NCBI GenBank assembly: GCA_964502345.1
Contig: CAZCWH010000001.1
Coordinates: 167 to 64,166 of the forward strand
From: an uncultured Candidatus Saccharibacteria bacterium
GTDB taxonomy: Bacteria > Patescibacteriota > Minisyncoccia > Phycocordibacterales > UBA918
Direction of reading: 5' to 3'
Length of the DNA: 64,000 nucleotides
Below, piece after piece: positions 26,472-64,000 of this stretch. The notes under the pieces were generated by a model, which worked only from the letters and a program-made list of their open reading frames with translations, did no database searches and was not told the origin of the DNA. The translations under genes were made by a program, and so were the position numbers. Position 1 is the first letter of the stretch. Each line of letters opens with the position of its first letter.

Positions 26472-26826
26472 AAAAAACCCATCTCGCTCTAAAGTGACCC
26501 AATGTCACTTTAGAGGAGGTTCTCGATAGTTTAATCCGCCTGAGGGCGGAGAGAACTATCATAGAACCAGAACAGCTTCTGTAAGAAGGTGGCTAGCCAC
26601 CACGAGCTTGGCTTTTCTTTTGAGCAAATCCATTTGCTCAAAAGAAAAACCCGTCTCGTGGTGCGACCCAATTTCTAAGGAGCGAAGCGACTATAGAAAT
26701 GGAAGTACTCCTAGATCAGCTCCGAACATCGCAGAATTCAAACATAGTGTAGCGGGTGGGATAAAAGAAAAACCCGTCTCGTGGTGGGAGATAGGGTTTT
26801 TCTAAACTCTTGTACTGTTGCTTGTT

Positions 26827-27963
26827 TTAGAACGTCGGTGTCGCAATGTAGCGAAGCTCCGTCGTATAGTCGTCGCCTGCTTCTTGGAGCGCCGAGATCT
26901 GAATCTGGTACCCGATGCGTGCGGCGCCTATTCCGGCAGTCACACCATCTGCTGGTCCCGTATGACCCATAACCACTATAGGTGTCGTGCTACCTGATAC
27001 CCATTCATCTGAACCAAACTCTTCTGGTGCAGAACGTGAAGTTGTAGCGTCAGTTGAGGTTAGACCCCAATGACCGTAGGTAGCGATGTCAGCAACAAGA
27101 GCACTTGGCCCTTGCCACGCAGTTGGTGTTTGCGTGTAGGCTCCATCGATGAATCCATCGATTATTCCGCCTGTTGTTGATTCGAGATCACCTGTTTGTT
27201 CTACTGTTACCGTGTAGCCGTGTAGGGCGTTTGTGGTAACAGAAAGATCTTGAGCAAGTGTTTTTGACGTATTGATTTCGAGTGTACCGAACGGTAGCGC
27301 TACATTAGTTGAAGTTGCTGCAGTCGTTGTTGGGCTCCCGTTCACGGTTGAGCTGGCTCCGACGCCAGTGACTGTGAATGTGAGCGAAGCATTGACGCTT
27401 GCAGATACCGTTACTTCATCAATGATAGCGACCCGAACTTGCCCTGAATCGGGCATGGTTCCACCGATTTCAATAAGATGCGATGTCGTTGTTGCAGTCG
27501 GGTTTGAGATCTGAGCATCCCCTCCTCCAAATAGACCAATCTCAATTACGAGTGGTGTACTTGATGCCTGCGGTACGTTACTCGGTGATGTGAGTGTTAG
27601 TACCTGAGCATTGAAGTAGGCTCCCCACACTCCACTTCCATTTACTGCCGCTACTGTTTGTGGAGTAGCTGATGCAGTGATGTCGATATCATCGAATGCC
27701 ATTGCTGGTATCGTGAAATCTACAGGAAATGTAATGGTGATCGTTGAACTTGCGAGCATACCAGTTGGCGTTGTAAACGCAATGGTGTGGTCGGAAGGCA
27801 ACCCTGGTGCAGAACTAGACAACGTATCACTTGCAAAAGTGATTGATGCAGCTTCCGCGGTGCGGAAGATGGTTGGAAGACCTGTACTCCAAAGGAATAC
27901 AGCGATACCAACAATCATTGCAACAGCCTGAAGAGTTCGCACGGTACTTGCCGTGTGAATCAT
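26827..27963 (-). CDS. secreted protein sharing the ~170-aa type-A C-terminal module with the 2471-aa giant protein
   Basis: 378 aa with a signal peptide. Its C-terminal half aligns by eye with the 2471-aa C-terminus (L.F.V.GV.ASST...PFG.L.I...VTTNA..GY... ...RYIA.P.F). Confidence 0.6.
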   Translation of the reverse strand: MIHTASTVRTLQAVAMIVGIAVFLWSTGLPTIFRTAEAASITFASDTLSSSAPGLPSDHTIAFTTPTGMLASSTITITFPVDFTIPAMAFDDIDITASATPQTVAAVNGSGVWGAYFNAQVLTLTSPSNVPQASSTPLVIEIGLFGGGDAQISNPTATTTSHLIEIGGTMPDSGQVRVAIIDEVTVSASVNASLTFTVTGVGASSTVNGSPTTTAATSTNVALPFGTLEINTSKTLAQDLSVTTNALHGYTVTVEQTGDLESTTGGIIDGFIDGAYTQTPTAWQGPSALVADIATYGHWGLTSTDATTSRSAPEEFGSDEWVSGSTTPIVVMGHTGPADGVTAGIGAARIGYQIQISALQEAGDDYTTELRYIATPTF

Positions 27964-28537
27964 AGGCTTTACGTTGTATTAACTACAGTATGTCGACTCT
28001 AATAATGAGCGGTTTGTATTGTTGTGCTCTTTCAACAATATTTACCTAGTAACCATGAGAGTCTCCACCCCTCTTTGATTCACTTTCGAACATACTACAC
28101 TCACCTCGACAACGCTCGGCTGTAAGCATTGGTACAGGATATTAATCCTAATACAAGTATTTCCTTCTCACATGTATGAAGTAAATACCTCGAAATGACT
28201 GTAAGTTCATTGTAACGTGAAGTTTTTTTATGAGCGGTTACTTATACACAAAATGGAGTAAAAATTCTTGTCACGGTAAATTTTTCACAAACCGCCAGCC
28301 TCCCTTGTACTCAAGGACTAAAAAGGCACCCCGTGTAATTGCAACTTATTTAACTAACTTGAGTTCCTTTCATCGCTTTTTCTTCATTGAAAAAGAAAAA
28401 GCGACGAACTCAGAAAATATCGGCCAGTTGCTTATGTCCAAATTGAAAGTTGGAGCAGGGCGTCTCCACAAAGCATCAGGAAAAGCATTGTGGAGACGGA
28501 CTCCTAAAGTATTGTCGCTGCGCTCTGTACTTTAGGG

Positions 28538-29662
28538 TCACCCGGTCCAGTTGAAGAGAAGGATTGAGAAGTCTTCGAGACTGACTCGACCATTTTGATT
28601 AATGTCTGCTGGAGGATTCGAGTTTCCACCTGGCGTATTCCACCAAAAAATCAGGATTGAAAAGTCGATTAGATTTACCTTCCCGTCACGATTGAGATCC
28701 GAGTTACTCGTCGGCCTCCCCTCAACTCCTACAAATAGTGACAGTGCCGTACCATAGGTACTTTCTGTTTTGAGGTTGCCTGTTCCTTCAATGAATCGTG
28801 CCTTTGCGGTGTGTGTATCTGCGGTGACGCTCGATGTATTGAAATCAACACTCCAATTTCCATTCGCGTCTGATGTTGTCCTCAGAGTTTGCTTTCCATT
28901 ATCAATTGATACTTCAACTGCAACACTTGGAACTGTTTGCCCACGCAAAATTATTGTCTCACCGGGATTAGGAGCATTATTGGAAGCACGTATAGTTGGT
29001 GGAATTAGCACACCGTTTACGTTTGTCACTGCACCCTGCGTTATATCAAACGTAGTACTGAATGTTGCAGATCGTGTCCCCGCAGTATCATTTGCCCAAA
29101 AGCTAAGTGATGCTGTACCAGGTTCAGTATCTGTATTAAATAAAAATTCTCCCCTACTATTTGTACGCACAGTCCCCACTGACTCACCATCAATTAAAAT
29201 AGTAACGGTGACATTCGGATACGCTTTCCCCTGCACAGTCACTTGCGTATCGCCAAGTTCGGTATCTCGTCCTCCTGACCCTGAATTTCCACCACCACCG
29301 GTCGATCCTCCTCCTGCATCTGCTTCTTCTTCTGTACAGTCTGCTGCACAAAAATCACCATCGGTATTGTTACCATCATCACACTCCTCTGAATAAATCG
29401 TTTGTAAAATAGCATCACCACAATATGGTGCCCACCTACAAATATCAGTGCACTGTCTTCCTGCGATTGTTGTGCTGTATTCCCCAGTATCTGTTGGGAT
29501 ATCACAGCTTTCTCCTGCATTGACAATAAGGTCACCACAAATACTAATGAGTAGCGAAGTCGTCGCAATACTTGATTGAGACGAAGCAACAAGAGGAACA
29601 AACATGGTGAGCAAACCACATATGCTTAGAATGAAATGATACGCAGGTCGTTTAGCGTACAT
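28538..29662 (-). CDS. secreted dockerin-bearing protein. Myxococcus-type Cys-rich repeats, a Gly-rich linker, two Ig-like domains, and a C-terminal dockerin.
   Basis: CGDxxxxxGEECDDGNNTDGDFCAADC-type repeats. The C-terminus DLNRDGKVNLIDFSILIFWW...DINQNGRVSLEDFSILLFNWTG is a dockerin duplicated-segment motif. Confidence 0.7.
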   Translation of the reverse strand: MYAKRPAYHFILSICGLLTMFVPLVASSQSSIATTSLLISICGDLIVNAGESCDIPTDTGEYSTTIAGRQCTDICRWAPYCGDAILQTIYSEECDDGNNTDGDFCAADCTEEEADAGGGSTGGGGNSGSGGRDTELGDTQVTVQGKAYPNVTVTILIDGESVGTVRTNSRGEFLFNTDTEPGTASLSFWANDTAGTRSATFSTTFDITQGAVTNVNGVLIPPTIRASNNAPNPGETIILRGQTVPSVAVEVSIDNGKQTLRTTSDANGNWSVDFNTSSVTADTHTAKARFIEGTGNLKTESTYGTALSLFVGVEGRPTSNSDLNRDGKVNLIDFSILIFWWNTPGGNSNPPADINQNGRVSLEDFSILLFNWTG

Positions 29663-36885: not shown

Positions 36886-37019
36886 TCCCCAATCGCATAG
36901 AACGTGACCAGAAAATAATGAGCGTAGCGATTATATTTTCTGAGTCCATCTTCATGAGCTTTTCCTATGCCTCATGAAGATGCCGTAATCAAACGCTCAA
37001 TAAAATATGGAAGTAGTAT

Positions 37020-58849: not shown

Positions 58850-60379
58850 TTACTTTAGAATTTTATTGACGTCACTTATTTCCTTTTCTATAAGCGTCTC
58901 AGAGACTTCGAGTGCCTGATTGAGGCCTTCTACAGCTTCACGCTCCTTCTTTGATAGTCGTTGTTTCTTAGTAATGAGGTTAATCTGATCGTAAATTTCG
59001 TCACGAAGTGCAGAGAATATCTTTTCCATCTGGTCCTGAATTTCCTTCGTCTCTTTACGAAGTTTGTGCTCCTTCTGGTCATGCTGCTTTCGTAGATAAA
59101 TCATATACCCTGTCTGGCAGAAGAAAAGGATTATGAGGAGCATAATTATGAGATTCTTTCCCTTGAAGAAATCCCAAATTGAACTTTCATCAATAACCGC
59201 TGATGGAGGAAGCCATCCGGCAGTAATAAGGACAGGGACAGTTGAACGCATCTTATTGCCTGCAAAGTCATATGCTACAACCTCAACAGTATATGTTCCG
59301 TCCTCGAGCTTATTGAGAAGGTAACCAAGTTTCGCCTCATCAGGCGTTACTTCAATCATCTCTTGGTCGGCGATGGTCATTTCGTATCGCTCAATACCTG
59401 AAGTTTCATCTTTTGCTTCAAAGGTGAGCATCGGGAATGATGTAGGTGAGTTGCCAGCACGCACATTTATCGTAAATGGCTGCGGAGGTTGCGTATCAAT
59501 CTTCAACATTCGATGCAGAATACCTCCCCACCCAACCTGATTCTTAAATTGAAGCGTCAAGTACTGCACTCCTTCAAAAAGTACTTCATCATTAGTTGTA
59601 AACTCTTCAATCGGAGGGTCATATCGGGTGACTGGTGTAAAGTCTGATGACGTTGCAATATCGAGCGCTACTTCAGTAACATCAAATGGAAGCGTCCAGG
59701 TAAAAATACCAGTCTTGGTTGAATACCATAATTCAGGATCTAAAAATGTGGTTGAGCCTGCCTCTGGAGCGCGGGGTGGATCACCAAATGTAATAGTTGC
59801 ATCGTCAGATGGCTCTTCTGCAACAGGCTCTTCTTCGGATGGTGGAGGTGTTACCGGTGCGGTTGCCGCGGTTACTGTATAGCTTGCTGGATTTCCACGT
59901 GTATAGACATCAGTGCCGAGGCCGTCAGCCGCAAGCACTGAAGCTGACGCAACAGTGGCTGCGCCTGTTCCTTCCGCAAGTGTTTTAAAGGTTACAGCAA
60001 TCAGGGTTGACCGTGCAGTGAACGGTGTCGGACTTCCTCCTCCAAAGTCAATGGTACCAGCACTGTTTGAAAAGGTTGGTTCTGTTGTCCATAGTGAAAA
60101 TACTGAACCAGTTTTTGAAACACTTACCACCGAGAGCTTTGTATTATCAAATGACAATTTCGCTTCAACCGCATTGACACTTTTACCCTGTGGATCAACC
60201 TGCACCGTCACCGTGAACGATTGTCCAATTGCATAACTGCCCGTTGATGGCGAAAAGTTGATTTCCGCCGCATGTGCAAACGTCGCTGCACCAAAAAAAC
60301 CGAGTGCAAGCACCGTGAGGTAAAATATTTTTCTAAATTGATTTAAATGAACTGAAAGAACCATAAACGTAAGACACAT
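58850..60379 (-). CDS. cohesin-domain bitopic membrane protein with a cytoplasmic coiled-coil tail
   Basis: signal peptide. Cohesin-like AEINFSPSTGSYAIGQSFTVTVQVDPQGKSVNAVEAKLSFDNTKLSVVSVS...SLW. TM (IIMLLIILFFCQTGYMIY) plus a ~100-aa charged helical tail. The likely start is ATG at 60379 with an AAGGAG SD. The track start 60382 is GTG. Confidence 0.7.
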   Translation of the reverse strand: MCLTFMVLSVHLNQFRKIFYLTVLALGFFGAATFAHAAEINFSPSTGSYAIGQSFTVTVQVDPQGKSVNAVEAKLSFDNTKLSVVSVSKTGSVFSLWTTEPTFSNSAGTIDFGGGSPTPFTARSTLIAVTFKTLAEGTGAATVASASVLAADGLGTDVYTRGNPASYTVTAATAPVTPPPSEEEPVAEEPSDDATITFGDPPRAPEAGSTTFLDPELWYSTKTGIFTWTLPFDVTEVALDIATSSDFTPVTRYDPPIEEFTTNDEVLFEGVQYLTLQFKNQVGWGGILHRMLKIDTQPPQPFTINVRAGNSPTSFPMLTFEAKDETSGIERYEMTIADQEMIEVTPDEAKLGYLLNKLEDGTYTVEVVAYDFAGNKMRSTVPVLITAGWLPPSAVIDESSIWDFFKGKNLIIMLLIILFFCQTGYMIYLRKQHDQKEHKLRKETKEIQDQMEKIFSALRDEIYDQINLITKKQRLSKKEREAVEGLNQALEVSETLIEKEISDVNKILK

Positions 60380-60840
60380 CACTGCTCCTTTGTACGTGCT
60401 CGACTTATCTTTAAACGAACCTTCTCCTTTTCTTCAGGTCGCAGAAGAGGAAGGATAAGGACCAGTACTCCATTCTTAATCTTTGCCTCTGCACCCTCAA
60501 TATCAACACTTTCTGGTAAGATGATTCGTCTATAAAAATCGCCCCAGACGCATTCTTCAGTAAAGAAAGCACCTTCAGGCTTTTTCTTTGGGAATGCCAA
60601 ATGTTCTGGGCGCAACCGCTTACCCTCAATAAGCACAACATCGGCATCACCCTCAATAGACACATGAATATCGGTGAGCTCAGCCCCGGCAGCTTGTGCA
60701 TATACGGTAATAAGATCAGTCGTCTGAAATACATCGACATCGAGTTGCACAATCTTATCAAGTGCCGTTTCTTCTTCGCTCGATTGCAGACGTTGTTCAG
60801 TTCGAATACCTCTTCCCTTGAGTCTTTGCAAAAAGGACAT
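60379..60840 (-). CDS. Hsp20/alpha-crystallin family small heat-shock protein
   Basis: 153 aa with an alpha-crystallin domain (LDVDVFQTTDLITVYAQAAGAE...IEGKRL...GDFYRRIILPESVDIEGAEAKIKNGVLVLILP). Its stop TGA overlaps the ATG of the downstream cohesin gene as TGATG. Confidence 0.85.
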   Translation of the reverse strand: MSFLQRLKGRGIRTEQRLQSSEEETALDKIVQLDVDVFQTTDLITVYAQAAGAELTDIHVSIEGDADVVLIEGKRLRPEHLAFPKKKPEGAFFTEECVWGDFYRRIILPESVDIEGAEAKIKNGVLVLILPLLRPEEKEKVRLKISRARTKEQ

Positions 60841-61030
60841 ACGATATCATTCTACTTGAAATGTTCAAAATATTACTGCGACTTATACACAAATGTTGCT
60901 TTAAGAAGATATCAGAAAAATGCTGACAGAAATTACTATCGCTGCAACTCCGAGGGGCGGTACACCTTTCGCAGAGATTGGCCCAGGCCACTCTCTCTGC
61001 CTACTGCATTCACCTTGTGTTCAAGGTCCT

Positions 61031-61053
61031 AAAAAAGCACCCCGTGCTTTTTT
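61031..61053. terminator. bidirectional intrinsic terminator AAAAAAGCAC-ccc-GTGCTTTTTT
   Basis: perfect 10-nt complementary arms with a GC core, flanked by an A-run and a T-run. A degenerate copy sits at ~28321-28345. Confidence 0.55.
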
Positions 61054-61084
61054 AGCCCGTCCAGTTGAAGATCATGATTGAAAA
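61052..61084 (-). pseudogene. orphan remnant of a dockerin C-terminus (encodes FSIMIFNWTG-stop) without an upstream ORF
   Basis: reverse-complement reads ttt tca atc atg atc ttc aac tgg acg ggc taa. That is 10/10 aa identical to the end of the 61171..63042 protein and ~70% nt identical to the 3' ends of both dockerin genes. The frame is closed a few codons upstream. Confidence 0.4.
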
Positions 61085-61170
61085 ATTAAATGAAGAAATG
61101 AAAGTAATGAATATTCTGAATTTATGTCCCGATTTTCCCCTTTCAAGGGAAAATCGCTGGACCACGCCAA

Positions 61171-63042
61171 TTATCCAGTCCAATTAAAGATCATGATCGA
61201 GAAGTCCGTCAAAGATACCTTTCCGTCACGATTGATGTCTGCAGGTGGATTTGAAGCACCTCCGTTTGAATTCCACCAGTAGAGAAGAATAGAAAAGTCG
61301 ATTAGATTTACCTTGCCGTCACGATTCAGGTCTGATGTTTGTGGTACTTGCGCCTGTGCACCTACTCCGTAATATGTAAAGTCAGAAAAATTAGTCGAGA
61401 CACCTCCATCCTGGCGAGCTTTTGCCCTTACCTTGTACGTACCTGTTTGAAAACCTGAAGTACTTAAATCGATTGACCACGCACCATTTGCGTCGGATGT
61501 AGCGGTGAGTGTTTTAAGACTGGCACTTGATTTATCATTTTGATTTTCAATAGTAATGGTAGCGTCTGGAATCGCAAATCCTGATATTTGGACTATACTA
61601 TTAGGATCGACAGGGTTTGGGGTCACCTTGATTGAAGGCATTACATTAATGTTAGAAAGTGTCGAACCACGAGCCCCTGAGACGGTAAATGTTGTCGAGA
61701 AAGTACTTGAACGAGTGCCGTTTTTATCTACAGCATACACACCAAAGGTATATACGCCACGGGCAATAAGATCAATGAGTACAGAAAATTCTCCTGTTGT
61801 CCCTGCTGTATCCTGCTCAGCAATCTGACCGTCGACGAGTACATACACCGTACTACGCGGGAAGGCGTACCCATTAACAATAACCCTACCATCGCCACTC
61901 TGGTACACTTTCTCTGACCCCTCCAGTCCACCTCCGCCATCGTCTCCACCACTTGATGATCCTGTACCCCCTCCGCCACCTCCACCTCCGCCTCCGCCAG
62001 AAGAGCCACCACTCGAGTCATCACCACCGGAAGGATCTCCCCCACCATCATCTACATCCCCCGAACCTTCTCCTGTACCAGAGCCCTCTCCTTCATCTTC
62101 ACCCTCTGCTCCTGGTGTTCCTTCCGGATATTCAGGCACAGTAAAGGTGAGTACATAGTCATCAATATTTACGTTCCCTTCATCGTCAATACAACGAATG
62201 AAAAACGTGTAGGTGGTACTTGTGGACACAGATATTGTTTCAGGATGAATCGTCGTAAAATTTGAAGTAAACTCAGACCCCATTGAAAAGTATGGCGTGC
62301 CTGAGGCAGTGCTATATCGACATTTCGAAAACTCATCAGTCTCAACGGAAATTTGCACTGCAAGTGAAGTACCTGAAATAGTTCCTGAAGGAGCCCCATT
62401 GAAGCGGACTGGTGGGTCAGTCTCCGTCGTGTCAAGATTAGGAACCGAGACTCTATCGACAGTAGCCACATGTCCTCTCACTCGCTCATCAGTACCTCCA
62501 CCTCCTGCCTCAATATGAAACTCAAATGTACCTGTTGCTGATGGATTAAGTAAACCAACATCTGTAGTAGTCGCATTTGTTGTGTGTGAACCAATAAGTA
62601 GACGAATGTATCTATTTGCTGGAATCCCAGTGGTCGAATTGAGTGTCACTTCAATATTCCCTGAAGTCCCAGTCGTAATTGCCACACCATCATCCACGGC
62701 ATCAGGAGTCACTGTTGCTGTACGAAGCGTATACCCTGACTCTGCTGAAGCTGATACATACATTTCAACATTATCAATATCAAAATCAGATACAGGTACA
62801 GTAAACGCTCCATCCTCAGGTATGAATCGTACATAGCCACCAGGTGGAATAGCAACGGTCGTCTTAAACTGTATGGTGTGGTTTGAATACTCACTCGGAA
62901 CAGAGTTAGAAAGTGTGTCCTTGTACTCGTGTATTGTTGCAGCAAAAACTGCATGTACTACAAATAAAAAAGACAAAACGCTCAGTGCAACAAAAGCGAG
63001 TTTAAATAAATCTTTATATAAAAAACGGCCCCATACATCCAT
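61171..63042 (-). CDS. secreted dockerin-bearing protein (623 aa). N-terminal head domain, long Gly/Ser/Asp linker (G13 run), two Ig-like domains, and a C-terminal dockerin.
   Basis: signal peptide. The C-terminal ~200 aa are paralogous to the 28538..29662 protein and end DLNRDGKVNLIDFSILLYWW...DINRDGKVSLTDFSIMIFNWTG. Confidence 0.7.
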   Translation of the reverse strand: MDVWGRFLYKDLFKLAFVALSVLSFLFVVHAVFAATIHEYKDTLSNSVPSEYSNHTIQFKTTVAIPPGGYVRFIPEDGAFTVPVSDFDIDNVEMYVSASAESGYTLRTATVTPDAVDDGVAITTGTSGNIEVTLNSTTGIPANRYIRLLIGSHTTNATTTDVGLLNPSATGTFEFHIEAGGGGTDERVRGHVATVDRVSVPNLDTTETDPPVRFNGAPSGTISGTSLAVQISVETDEFSKCRYSTASGTPYFSMGSEFTSNFTTIHPETISVSTSTTYTFFIRCIDDEGNVNIDDYVLTFTVPEYPEGTPGAEGEDEGEGSGTGEGSGDVDDGGGDPSGGDDSSGGSSGGGGGGGGGGGTGSSSGGDDGGGGLEGSEKVYQSGDGRVIVNGYAFPRSTVYVLVDGQIAEQDTAGTTGEFSVLIDLIARGVYTFGVYAVDKNGTRSSTFSTTFTVSGARGSTLSNINVMPSIKVTPNPVDPNSIVQISGFAIPDATITIENQNDKSSASLKTLTATSDANGAWSIDLSTSGFQTGTYKVRAKARQDGGVSTNFSDFTYYGVGAQAQVPQTSDLNRDGKVNLIDFSILLYWWNSNGGASNPPADINRDGKVSLTDFSIMIFNWTG

Positions 63043-63342
63043 GGTACTTGCTTATTGTACCGTACGTAACCACTGATTATTGACTCCCGGTGCGTATAAA
63101 TCCATCCTCAGTGCTCATTTGTATAGAACATGCTTCCCTGAGCAAAGTTCGAGATAAAAGAAGCATTAGGAAAAGCATTATCGCTAATATTCTTATATTT
63201 CAGTTATTTTGAGACGTCTAGCCCTTTCATCATGAACGATGAAAGGGAGACGGAAGTTCGCAATAGTCGCTACTTCTTACAGAAGCTGTTTAGGTTGTTG
63301 CAAGTTTGTCTCCAGAGTCACAAACTTGCTAACAACCTCTTG

Positions 63343-63364
63343 CAAAAGTGCACAGCACTTTTTC
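63343..63364. terminator. intrinsic terminator-like hairpin AAAAGTGC-aca-GCACTTTT with a flanking T-run
   Basis: 8-nt complementary arms, plus-sense TTTTT at 63359-63363, and an A-run on the other side so it is bidirectional. It lies in the 460-bp intergenic region upstream of the dockerin gene. Confidence 0.45.
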
Positions 63365-63504
63365 ACTCGTTGCTCACTTTTTATAAAACCTGATTTCCTG
63401 AGCAAAGTTCGAGGCAAAACTAAGTTTTTGATTAAGCCCTACTTGGCGTAGGGTGAGATGAAAAACTGACGTTTTAACGAGGAAATTTGCCAGGAAAGCA
63501 GGTT

Positions 63505-64000
63505 TTATTTCACACATCTAAAGCCGATACCTATACTCGCAGACGTAGGGAGTGTATCGGCATGAATTGAATAGGTACCTGCATCTTTACCACTATCGTA
63601 GTAACCGCCACGGATCATACCGTAAGCACCTGTCTCATTAACCCAGAAATAGTCTTCCCCAAAAAGTGACTGGGGGATATCAGTTGAAACGATAGCGACT
63701 CCTCCAACATCGACTTGTGCAACATACCCTTCCTGAGGCAGTAATCGTTCTTTATATTTTCCATCGATTATGTCATCACTTACCCACTCCCACACATTAC
63801 CCACAAAATCATATGCACCATGTGGAGAAACACATTCTGCATAGGCACCTGTTTTTGAAACTTGTTTAGAATTTACATTACATGCTGCTTCTACAGTGGT
63901 CATACCAAGACTGAGTTGATACCACTCCTCTGCGGTCGGTAAGCGCTTACCAGCCCGTGCACACATCTGCATCGCCTGATCACGAGTGACAAACCCCCAT
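63505..64000 (-). CDS. formylglycine-generating-enzyme (FGE-sulfatase/SUMF1) domain protein, 5' end beyond window
   Basis: ...WGFVTRDQAMQMCARAGKRLPTAEEWYQLS...GNVWEWVSD...RGG matches conserved FGE-sulfatase motifs. The frame stays open to the last base of the window. Confidence 0.75.
   Translation of the reverse strand, partial: WGFVTRDQAMQMCARAGKRLPTAEEWYQLSLGMTTVEAACNVNSKQVSKTGAYAECVSPHGAYDFVGNVWEWVSDDIIDGKYKERLLPQEGYVAQVDVGGVAIVSTDIPQSLFGEDYFWVNETGAYGMIRGGYYDSGKDAGTYSIHADTLPTSASIGIGFRCVK

Follow-up and report, generated by a model that had tools for sequence, protein, structure and literature searches.

What is a second copy of the end of a gene doing 86 nt behind the first one? The question is raised by a dockerin gene, here called gene B, in a 64,000-nt stretch of DNA from an uncultured Candidatus Saccharibacteria bacterium (contig CAZCWH010000001.1, positions 167 to 64,166; "the window" below means this whole stretch). 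The last ten codons of gene B and its stop codon (END1) are found again downstream, in the same orientation, as an orphan (END2) that belongs to no gene, and the two copies enclose an inverted copy of a structured intergenic repeat, element M. We favor, with moderate confidence, the explanation that the orphan is a non-functional displaced copy of gene B's own 3' end, lying in an unstable bracket END1 - M - END2. Feature coordinates are collected in Table 1.

A direct-repeat search returns the two ends as a 33-nt direct repeat, identical at 27 of 33 nt (82%), with a spacing of 119 nt. END1 reads TTC TCG ATC ATG ATC TTT AAT TGG ACT GGA TAA and END2 reads TTT TCA ATC ATG ATC TTC AAC TGG ACG GGC TAA; the encoded peptides are the same at all ten residues and both end in a stop. 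By hand count END2 also matches the 3' end of the other dockerin gene of the window (gene A, 28538..28570) at 26/33 nt (79%). The orphan corresponds to the last 10 residues of the second dockerin helix only and is not a domain. Its offset of 119 nt is 2 modulo 3, which puts it out of frame with gene B. In its own frame there is a TAA 44 codons upstream, no ATG follows it, and the frame is open right across the spacer. When the peptide D-F-S-I-x-x-F-N-W-T-G-stop was back-translated with full degeneracy, the window contained three matches, namely the two true gene ends and the orphan, and 100 shuffled sequences contained none. A preliminary description of this DNA had reported the minus-strand FSIMIFNWTG-stop at 61052..61084 with the same amino acids as the true C-terminus, behind a closed frame and between gene B and an intrinsic terminator, and had taken it for copied dockerin coding sequence and not a chance match. 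The sequence bears out each of these points, the terminator hairpin (61029..61055) in fact overlapping the orphan stop; the identity of about 70% that was given for both dockerin ends was an underestimate.

How did the two copies come to differ? All six mismatches between END1 and END2 fall at third codon positions and all are synonymous (written as END2>END1: T>C, A>G, C>T, C>T, G>T, C>A). Six out of six would be expected with P of about 0.001-0.004 if the orphan were a neutral duplicate and the upstream copy accepted synonymous change only, and six sites drawn at random from 33 would all be third positions in 462 of 1,107,568 draws (4e-4). The copies differ in six of their eight degenerate codons, the same proportion as between unrelated orthologous ends. 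Both copies thus appear to have diverged while coding, and to be as far apart as the genes of two species without any amino acid having changed. Such synonymous-only divergence would rule out a tandem duplicate followed by neutral decay, and divergence while coding would mean that recombination between functional dockerin ends either placed the copies side by side or renewed them. As to the orphan itself, the pattern suggests that it lost its gene only recently or else that it remains constrained.

The DNA between the two ends (61085..61170) is M in inverted orientation. A profile of M recognizes the spacer with an nhmmer E value of 8e-21, one of the profile's five seeds being the spacer copy itself. 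Independently of the profile, blastn aligns the spacer with contigs of three relatives: L014 (83% over 112 nt), L034 (73% over 78 nt, at L034:9628-9706) and L003 (79% over 53 nt, at L003:3710-3762). The M copy of L014 in turn matches L034:9628-9706 (83.5% over 79 nt, E = 7e-17) and L002:3656-3706 (blastn). In L034, L002 and L003, M lies directly after the stop codon of an FGE-sulfatase gene ending in (G/A)T(T/G/C) AAA TGA; given this placement, we read the spacer as the inverted 3' flank of such a gene, including its last two codons and stop. The window has an FGE-sulfatase domain in the open reading frame (ORF) 63505..63972, and a second M copy, forward relative to the genes, stands between that gene and gene B, so that the copies at the spacer and at 63214..63274 form an inverted pair flanking gene B. 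The similarity between M copies is 73-84% whatever their context or species. The ends of the spacer carry no terminal inverted repeats.

M, about 80 nt in size, is a member of a family of two-hairpin intergenic elements. In the first hairpin (H1), stems of 4-10 bp that vary and covary close the conserved loop GAGCG(N)AGCGAC(W)A. From there a short linker leads to a second, variable hairpin (H2). The loop motif occurs at about 15 intergenic sites in 255 kb. In an alignment of 13 H1 copies, 88% of the cells are paired, and in nine of nine pairs both partners have changed. Covariation scores 0.82, compared with 0.22 in shuffled alignments (0/500 as good) and at most 0.21 when the partner is slid. 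These elements are a genuine structured repeat family without a counterpart in Rfam, where the whole window has no match at the gathering score and 60800-63600 has nothing relevant at E values up to 10. A scan of viral contigs for the element core gave no match. Family members mostly follow a stop codon at a distance of no more than about 100 nt and occur in both orientations, and in L003 M occurs as an inverted doublet. The H1 loop varies by a 1-nt indel between M copies, which are equally conserved with or without it. Of the five H1 elements in the window, three are bracketed by significant direct repeats (empirical P of 0.007 or less for each, against a null of 1%). Besides END1/END2 these are a 27-nt repeat, 26640-26666/26763-26789, that is 26/27 identical (96%), has a period of 123 nt and brackets an inverted H1, and a 42-nt repeat, 63118-63159/63378-63419, that is 83% identical, has a period of about 260 nt and brackets the forward M upstream of gene B. 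The distal copy of the former, 26763-26789, is one terminator arm of a gene for 378 residues (26827..27963), with a third, partial copy at 26473-26486; a motif resembling the latter, TTTTGCCNCGAAYTTTGCTCA, adjoins an H1 element in L002. In L009 (3860-3900) the last codons of an FGE-sulfatase gene come from the 5' stem of H1, which overlaps the gene end; the protein finishes in …RCVAGN* instead of the …RCVK* of relatives, showing that family elements can remodel gene ends. An RNA element, a protein-binding site and a repeat element are all candidates for what the family represents.

Is the bracket peculiar to the window? Metagenome contigs were scanned for WTG-stop, a gap of 46-106 nt and FNWTG, in a degenerate scan of 241 million records. 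It gave 18 matches, of which 17 are chance and one, L014, is real. L014 carries a gene B ortholog (60% protein identity) followed by hsp20 and a cohesin gene, and its layout is DFSIMVFNWTG-TAG, an 89-nt spacer and FSIMVFNWTG-TAA. Its spacer is homologous to that of the window (76% for the spacer alone; the 112 nt aligned above include the orphan), the right junction, CATTTAAY | TTYTC, is common to both, and its offset of 122 nt is likewise 2 modulo 3. Reading H2 of L014 against that of the window suggests a compensatory T-A to G-C change. The END copies of L014 differ at five sites, all synonymous or stop-to-stop, and are identical over their first 19 nt; at the one residue in which the END peptides of the window and L014 differ, both copies have I in the window and V in L014. 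Nucleotide identity between window and L014 is 68% over the last 240 nt of the gene, 74% in hsp20, 76% in the spacer and 85% in the orphan, the last being no more than for any two orthologous ends, and the rest of the intergenic region cannot be aligned. In L014 the duplication seems to continue for about 10 nt after the stop (P = 0.011).

The close kin of L014, taken as the members of its 90% protein cluster, differ in copy number. Contigs L035 and L036, from two ENA samples and with genes 96.4% and 99.0% identical to L014 in nucleotides, read END-M-END-M, the sequence of the middle END being identical to that of the true end, and both contigs end inside the second M, which means at least two units. 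L014 and L037 have one M each; L037 (gene 99.5% identical to L014) carries the other M allele, and its orphan, FSIMAFNWTC*, would have two non-synonymous changes, on a contig of poor quality in which the gene is split into three ORFs. END plus M is thus a copy-number-variable tandem repeat in the L014 species; the window carries 1.28 units. The bracket is present in two of 16 lineages and absent from the 14 others sampled, among them the nearest relatives of the window (68-73% protein identity). Exact-protein look-ups of gene B and hsp20 returned no match; the protein database has a single entry from the source contig, and the next relative is only 70% identical, so that the event cannot be dated from close strains.

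These results bear out in part what the preliminary description had called turnover of a dockerin 3' cassette, duplicated or exchanged by recombination. Its duplicated end is there, and synonymous-only divergence does indicate duplication or recombination between functional gene ends, in the spirit of that claim. Exchange with the other dockerin gene of the window is the part that lacks support: nothing shows that the orphan came from gene A, and a search of the gene A flank for a remnant of the orphan found none (P = 0.19). A cassette of dockerin end and terminator also passed over what fills the 86 nt, a structured intergenic repeat inserted in inverted orientation, and with it the repeat family and the tandem layout shared with L014.

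The explanation that we favor starts from one illegitimate recombination. An FGE gene end in reverse complement (TCATTTAAY) would in this event have been fused to a dockerin end (TTYTCN ATC ATG) at its F codon, the partners sharing at most the dinucleotide AC. The END copies would derive from different functional copies (alleles, orthologs or paralogs), or one of them would have been overwritten by a diverged functional allele. In the L014 species the bracket is an unstable minisatellite, with units of 119-122 nt gained and lost between near-identical strains, and recombination between END copies or between M copies would expand the array or contract it to a single END. Such contraction would erase the bracket, which would explain both the patchy distribution and the rarity of the arrangement. 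Translation of gene B would stop at the first TAA, and the transcript probably continues through M and the orphan to the hairpin overlapping the orphan stop, which is likely to be the original terminator of gene B.

Several points weigh against this explanation, age among them. If the bracket had arisen once, before the lineages of the window and of L014 separated, a neutral orphan should have decayed; the orphan is intact in both, and between the two the synonymous sites are saturated and the flanks unalignable. For both orphans to be intact, each lineage would have to have acquired the bracket recently, or gene conversion or genuine constraint would have to be at work. Under recent arrival in both, some 150-250 nt would have had to pass between clades with unalignable flanks, and gene conversion fits the identical 5' halves and matching I/V residues of L014 but not the saturated 3' halves. 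The only signal of decay is the L037 orphan FSIMAFNWTC, and it is weak. No donor of either END copy was found within the ~64 kb of this genome. M, at about 80% conservation in every context, probably has some function. We also considered selection through recombination load as what keeps the orphan intact and rejected it by reasoning, since contraction removes the bracket with or without an intact orphan and cannot select among carriers.

Could the unit itself be mobile? END-M, or M alone, would then be a small non-autonomous mobile or recombining cassette that enters the 3' ends of genes and leaves target repeats of 27-50 nt, or that spreads between lineages by recombining in the conserved dockerin end, each orphan being the freshly displaced native end of the recipient. 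Intact orphans, a distribution over two of 16 lineages and the identical junction would all fit, as would the even similarity of M copies, and the duplication in L014 that seems to extend past the stop and the Y1 (IS200-like) transposase gene 6 kb from the locus in L034 point the same way. The brackets around three of the five window elements (27 nt at 96%, 33 nt at 82%, 42 nt at 83%) cut both ways: most element copies in other genomes are unbracketed, at 26.7 kb and 63.2 kb the brackets themselves consist of recurrent modules (the terminator arm and the motif also seen in L002), and target duplications are identical at birth, not 82%. Since in addition the scan of 241 million records gave a single true case, in an orthologous gene, and the window has neither a transposase nor terminal inverted repeats at M, we consider a cassette unlikely. 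A bolder version makes the H1/H2 element an undescribed small mobile or recombinogenic element of the candidate phyla radiation (CPR) that enters gene 3' ends, is bracketed by target repeats of 27-50 nt and carries coding-competent copies of the last ten dockerin codons, the orphan being part of its integration machinery; this strikes us as quite unlikely, and if it were true every dockerin insertion would leave the gene intact and the orphan would not be debris. Plain tandem duplication of the gene end in place, with the downstream copy decaying neutrally, would be the simplest route to a direct repeat and is in keeping with the varying copy number of the L014 species, but it is distinctly improbable in the face of the six synonymous changes out of six, the like bias in L014, and a 3' half with saturated synonymous and untouched non-synonymous sites. 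A second, decayed M after the orphan was sought as well, and neither in the window nor in L014 does that flank show similarity to M (P = 0.29-0.37), so this is not a decayed END-M-END-M array. As for chance similarity or a metagenome assembly chimera, the window does come from a metagenome-assembled contig; we give this almost no credence, because no shuffled sequence matched and because the same architecture occurs in four independent assemblies of another species (the L014 species; JGI, two ENA samples, NCBI), which makes an assembly artefact very unlikely.

Is the orphan translated? Judged from its sequence it would be untranslated, being out of frame and without a start codon, and we find no support for its translation. 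The contrary proposal, that the orphan is kept for coding, either in a small ORF or -1 frame extension that finishes with FSIMIFNWTG or in an antisense peptide of about 37 residues starting from the ATG in the palindrome GATCATGAT, we hold to be very improbable. Peptides containing ...KSGHKFRIFITFISSFNFSIMIFNWTG or MIEKLNEEMKVMNILNLCPDF... would then be expected. It is true that the orphan frame stays open from one end of the spacer to the other, in the window and in L014 alike, that the plus-strand ORF 61065..61187 has by reading an open counterpart in L014 (MIEKLNEE...ILNLCPD...NRWT), and that antisense third positions coincide with sense ones, which lets the synonymous pattern fit either strand. 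No start codon of any kind in the orphan frame is conserved between the window and L014, however; no convincing ribosome-binding site is present, and the interval from the -1 frame stop (61186..61184) to the TAA holds no slippery heptamer X XXY YYZ. Neither period, 119 or 122 nt, is a multiple of three, with the result that successive units change frame, and the 1-nt indel in the H1 loop of other M copies breaks either frame; since copies with the indel are equally conserved, the conservation of M is not due to coding. The orphan's identity of 85% between window and L014 exceeds the 68-74% of the neighboring coding DNA but counts for little, being ordinary for orthologous ends. A protein search with the 43-residue ORF of the orphan frame found no match, and both changes in the L037 orphan are non-synonymous. 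Programmed frameshifting or bypass can be rejected on the same grounds (no heptamer, a change of frame with each unit) and because a bypass between the END copies would give the same protein and no distinct product. A long-range stem between the END palindromes (ATCATGAT) was discarded as well, being predicted in the window and not in L014.

Table 1. Positions of the gene ends, element M and neighboring features in the window, with H1 elements of relatives
Feature	Position	Strand	Basis or remark
END1, last 10 codons + TAA, FSIMIFNWTG*	61203..61171	minus	true end of gene B
END2 (orphan), copy of last 10 codons + TAA	61084..61052	minus	out of frame, without start codon
Spacer, inverted element M	61085..61170	plus (M forward strand = window plus strand)	nhmmer, blastn
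Spacer start ATTAAATGA, resembling the V-K-stop end of FGE-sulfatase genes	61085-61093	plus	reading
Hairpin H1, stem AGAA/TTCT, 14-nt loop, AT-rich variant GAAAGTAATGAATA	61094-61117	plus	alignment, covariation
Linker GAATTTATGTC between H1 and H2		plus	reading
Hairpin H2, CGATTTTCCC/GGGAAAATCG, then CTGGACC	61130-61156	plus	inverted-repeat search
Second M copy, forward relative to genes, between FGE-sulfatase gene and gene B	63214..63274	minus	nhmmer E = 1.5e-10
H1 elements in window	26680-26693 (+), 28512-28525 (-), 36920-36933 (+), 61100-61113 (+), ~63214-63274 (-)	as given	loop motif/nhmmer
H1 elements in relatives	L001:5882; L002:3671/3848/8357; L003:3665/3782; L006:4769; L009:3878; L014:5504; L034:9643/9726		
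Dockerin gene B, 623 aa, Big_6/Ig-like domains and C-terminal type I dockerin	61171..63042	minus	ORF, Pfam
Dockerin gene A	28538..29662		Dockerin_1 34.1 bits, above Pfam cut-off
Intrinsic-terminator-like hairpin, perfect 12+12-nt stem, CTAAAAAAGCAC-GGG-GTGCTTTTTTAG	61029..61055	minus	inverted-repeat search, folding
Small hairpin CCTTGAACACAAGG just after terminator	61013..61028	minus	with terminator, 34-nt module common to gene A flank
Diverged terminator and small-hairpin module downstream of gene A, left terminator arm lost	28303..28335	minus	alignment
TTTGTGTATAAGT motif and -10-like box before hsp20 (60379..60840)	60849..60893	minus	downstream limit of variable intergenic region

Genes A and B both pass as type I dockerin genes, for which we looked for two calcium-binding repeats (DxNxDGxxxxxD plus helix) and a score above the gathering cut-off; gene B matches Dockerin_1 (PF00404) at 5e-9 and 36.6 bits, the cut-off being 22.9, and also matches Big_6. 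The relatives of gene B are on genome contigs of CPR metagenome-assembled genomes, all labelled Saccharibacteria, Paceibacterota or Kaiserbacteria. About 120 full-length gene B orthologs end in FNWTG or a close variant and none is extended. Synteny is kept in the relatives, with one or more FGE-sulfatase genes, gene B, hsp20 and a cohesin protein. In the window a protein with a cohesin domain is encoded two genes downstream of gene B (58850-60382, minus strand), and the two may form a cohesin-dockerin pair in a CPR bacterium. The next gene after it is a 7248-residue ORF (37020-58766, minus strand), giant counterparts of which carry DUF2341 in relatives.

Have the two dockerin genes of the window exchanged sequence with each other? 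At dockerin repeat 1 the stretches 61264-61298 (gene B) and 28631-28665 (gene A) form a 35-nt run with a single mismatch, identical at synonymous sites, in a dockerin region where the genes are otherwise 70% identical. This run is the only hint of exchange between the two. Gene conversion there is possible to judge by the run, which is not significant and ties the longest of 136 pairs. Two other candidates were set aside. Over the final 750 nt of gene B, identity profiles drawn against 14 orthologs stay flat, giving no recombination tract, and the near-identity of END1 to the gene end in L039 (a 35-nt run) is not significant after multiple testing.

The terminator beyond the orphan has an A-tract and a T-tract on either side, with a T-run after it, and its left arm contains the orphan stop codon. 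The hairpin is predicted in the minimum-free-energy and centroid folds of both strands. A degenerate copy of this terminator had been reported after the other dockerin gene, and it holds up: the module at 28303..28335 is identical to that of gene B in 29 of 34 columns, and none of 2000 shuffles did as well.

Beyond the terminator, the spacer between gene B and hsp20 measures from 40 to about 400 nt in relatives, and its only conserved part is TTTGTGTATAASTN(20-40)TANAAT before hsp20. To judge from the sequences, the region downstream of gene B appears to be a general repeat hot spot. In every relative read, TTTGTGTATAA(G/C)T stands about 30 nt upstream of the TAnAAT box before hsp20, and the same arrangement is found at 28209-28252 (minus strand), before the 378-residue gene that follows gene A. 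Motif and box together are a candidate promoter or regulator site. Other contents of the slot between gene B and hsp20 are an (ATCTATC)n microsatellite in L007 (4742-4790) and a long palindrome of TAGCTA/TTAGT repeats in L008 (4757-4810). In one lineage a 333-residue gene with no recorded Pfam family lies there (L039:11878-12879 and L040:6212-7213), starting 6 nt past the dockerin stop.

What known systems does the bracket resemble? The closest documented parallel is icd with the cryptic prophage e14 and the icdC pseudogene in E. coli K-12 (and likewise phage 21). There the insert supplies a working 3' end and the native end is left behind as a fragment, and e14 excision recombines the two icd ends into a hybrid end that still functions, with a set of synonymous changes and two conservative substitutions (PMC13626634). 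As in icd/icdC, an intact gene B is followed by a C-terminal copy in direct orientation (33 nt, ten of ten residues plus stop), the copies differ mainly synonymously (six of six in the window; in L014 five of five synonymous or stop-to-stop), and the copy-number change in the L014 species would imply the same kind of recombination. Unlike e14, the insert here spans 86 nt, lacks any credible ORF or integrase and duplicates a hairpin element of the local intergenic DNA; only 33 nt of the gene end are repeated, and the unit can be amplified in tandem.

In that last respect the bracket resembles a minisatellite, or variable number tandem repeat, that spans a stop codon, with head-to-tail units of 119-122 nt, a copy number that differs between strains about 1% apart in their genes, and a gene that stays intact because the first unit holds the stop. 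The window departs from this model in having 1.28 units and END copies that are 82% identical with synonymous-only differences, which fits neither recent slippage nor neutral decay.

Small intergenic repeats of bacteria include the REP (repetitive extragenic palindromic), BIME and REPIN sequences mobilized by RAYT (Y1) transposases, and others such as Correia, BOX, RUP and ERIC. M is similarly short, hairpin-forming and extragenic, usually lies just after stop codons in both orientations, and in L003 forms a REPIN-like doublet. REPs conserve the sequence of the stem, whereas in M the stems vary and covary and it is the loop that is conserved; there are also only about five copies in 64 kb. No Y1 (RAYT) gene was found by tblastn in the 64-kb window. 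A Y1 transposase gene of the IS200 type (Pfam 27 bits, cut-off 23) with an HNHYH (HuH-type) motif is present at L034:3307-3963 (minus strand), upstream of the gene B ortholog on a 1.03-Mb contig, and could be a RAYT-like partner of the hairpin elements.

Several further comparisons fail. A miniature inverted-repeat transposable element is rejected because the spacer has no terminal inverted repeats and its flanking repeat, 33 nt at 82%, is not a short target-site duplication. The template and variable repeats of diversity-generating retroelements also set a non-coding near-copy of C-terminal coding sequence near a gene end, but the repeat here measures just 33 nt, its mismatches show no adenine specificity and the protein is invariant rather than diversified. 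On reading, the sequence does not fit integron attC sites or Xer/dif sites either. In the literature we found neither such elements nor remnants of dockerin genes described for CPR bacteria.

An orphan gene end alone is ordinary. Less ordinary are the recombination at dockerin ends, the synonymous-only signal and the repeat family that the orphan has revealed. Synonymous-only differences separate recombination between working genes from duplication and decay, and END-M brackets break metagenome assemblies, two contigs here ending inside the repeat. The repeat family, common to CPR lineages labelled Saccharibacteria, Paceibacterota and Kaiserbacteria and apparently undescribed, is perhaps the lead of greater value, be it a mobile element, a protein-binding site or an RNA of 3' untranslated regions. 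For the organisms themselves, ultra-small CPR bacteria, the genes of dockerin surface proteins have 3' ends that are hot spots of recombination, at which units are gained and lost between strains about 1% apart in their genes.

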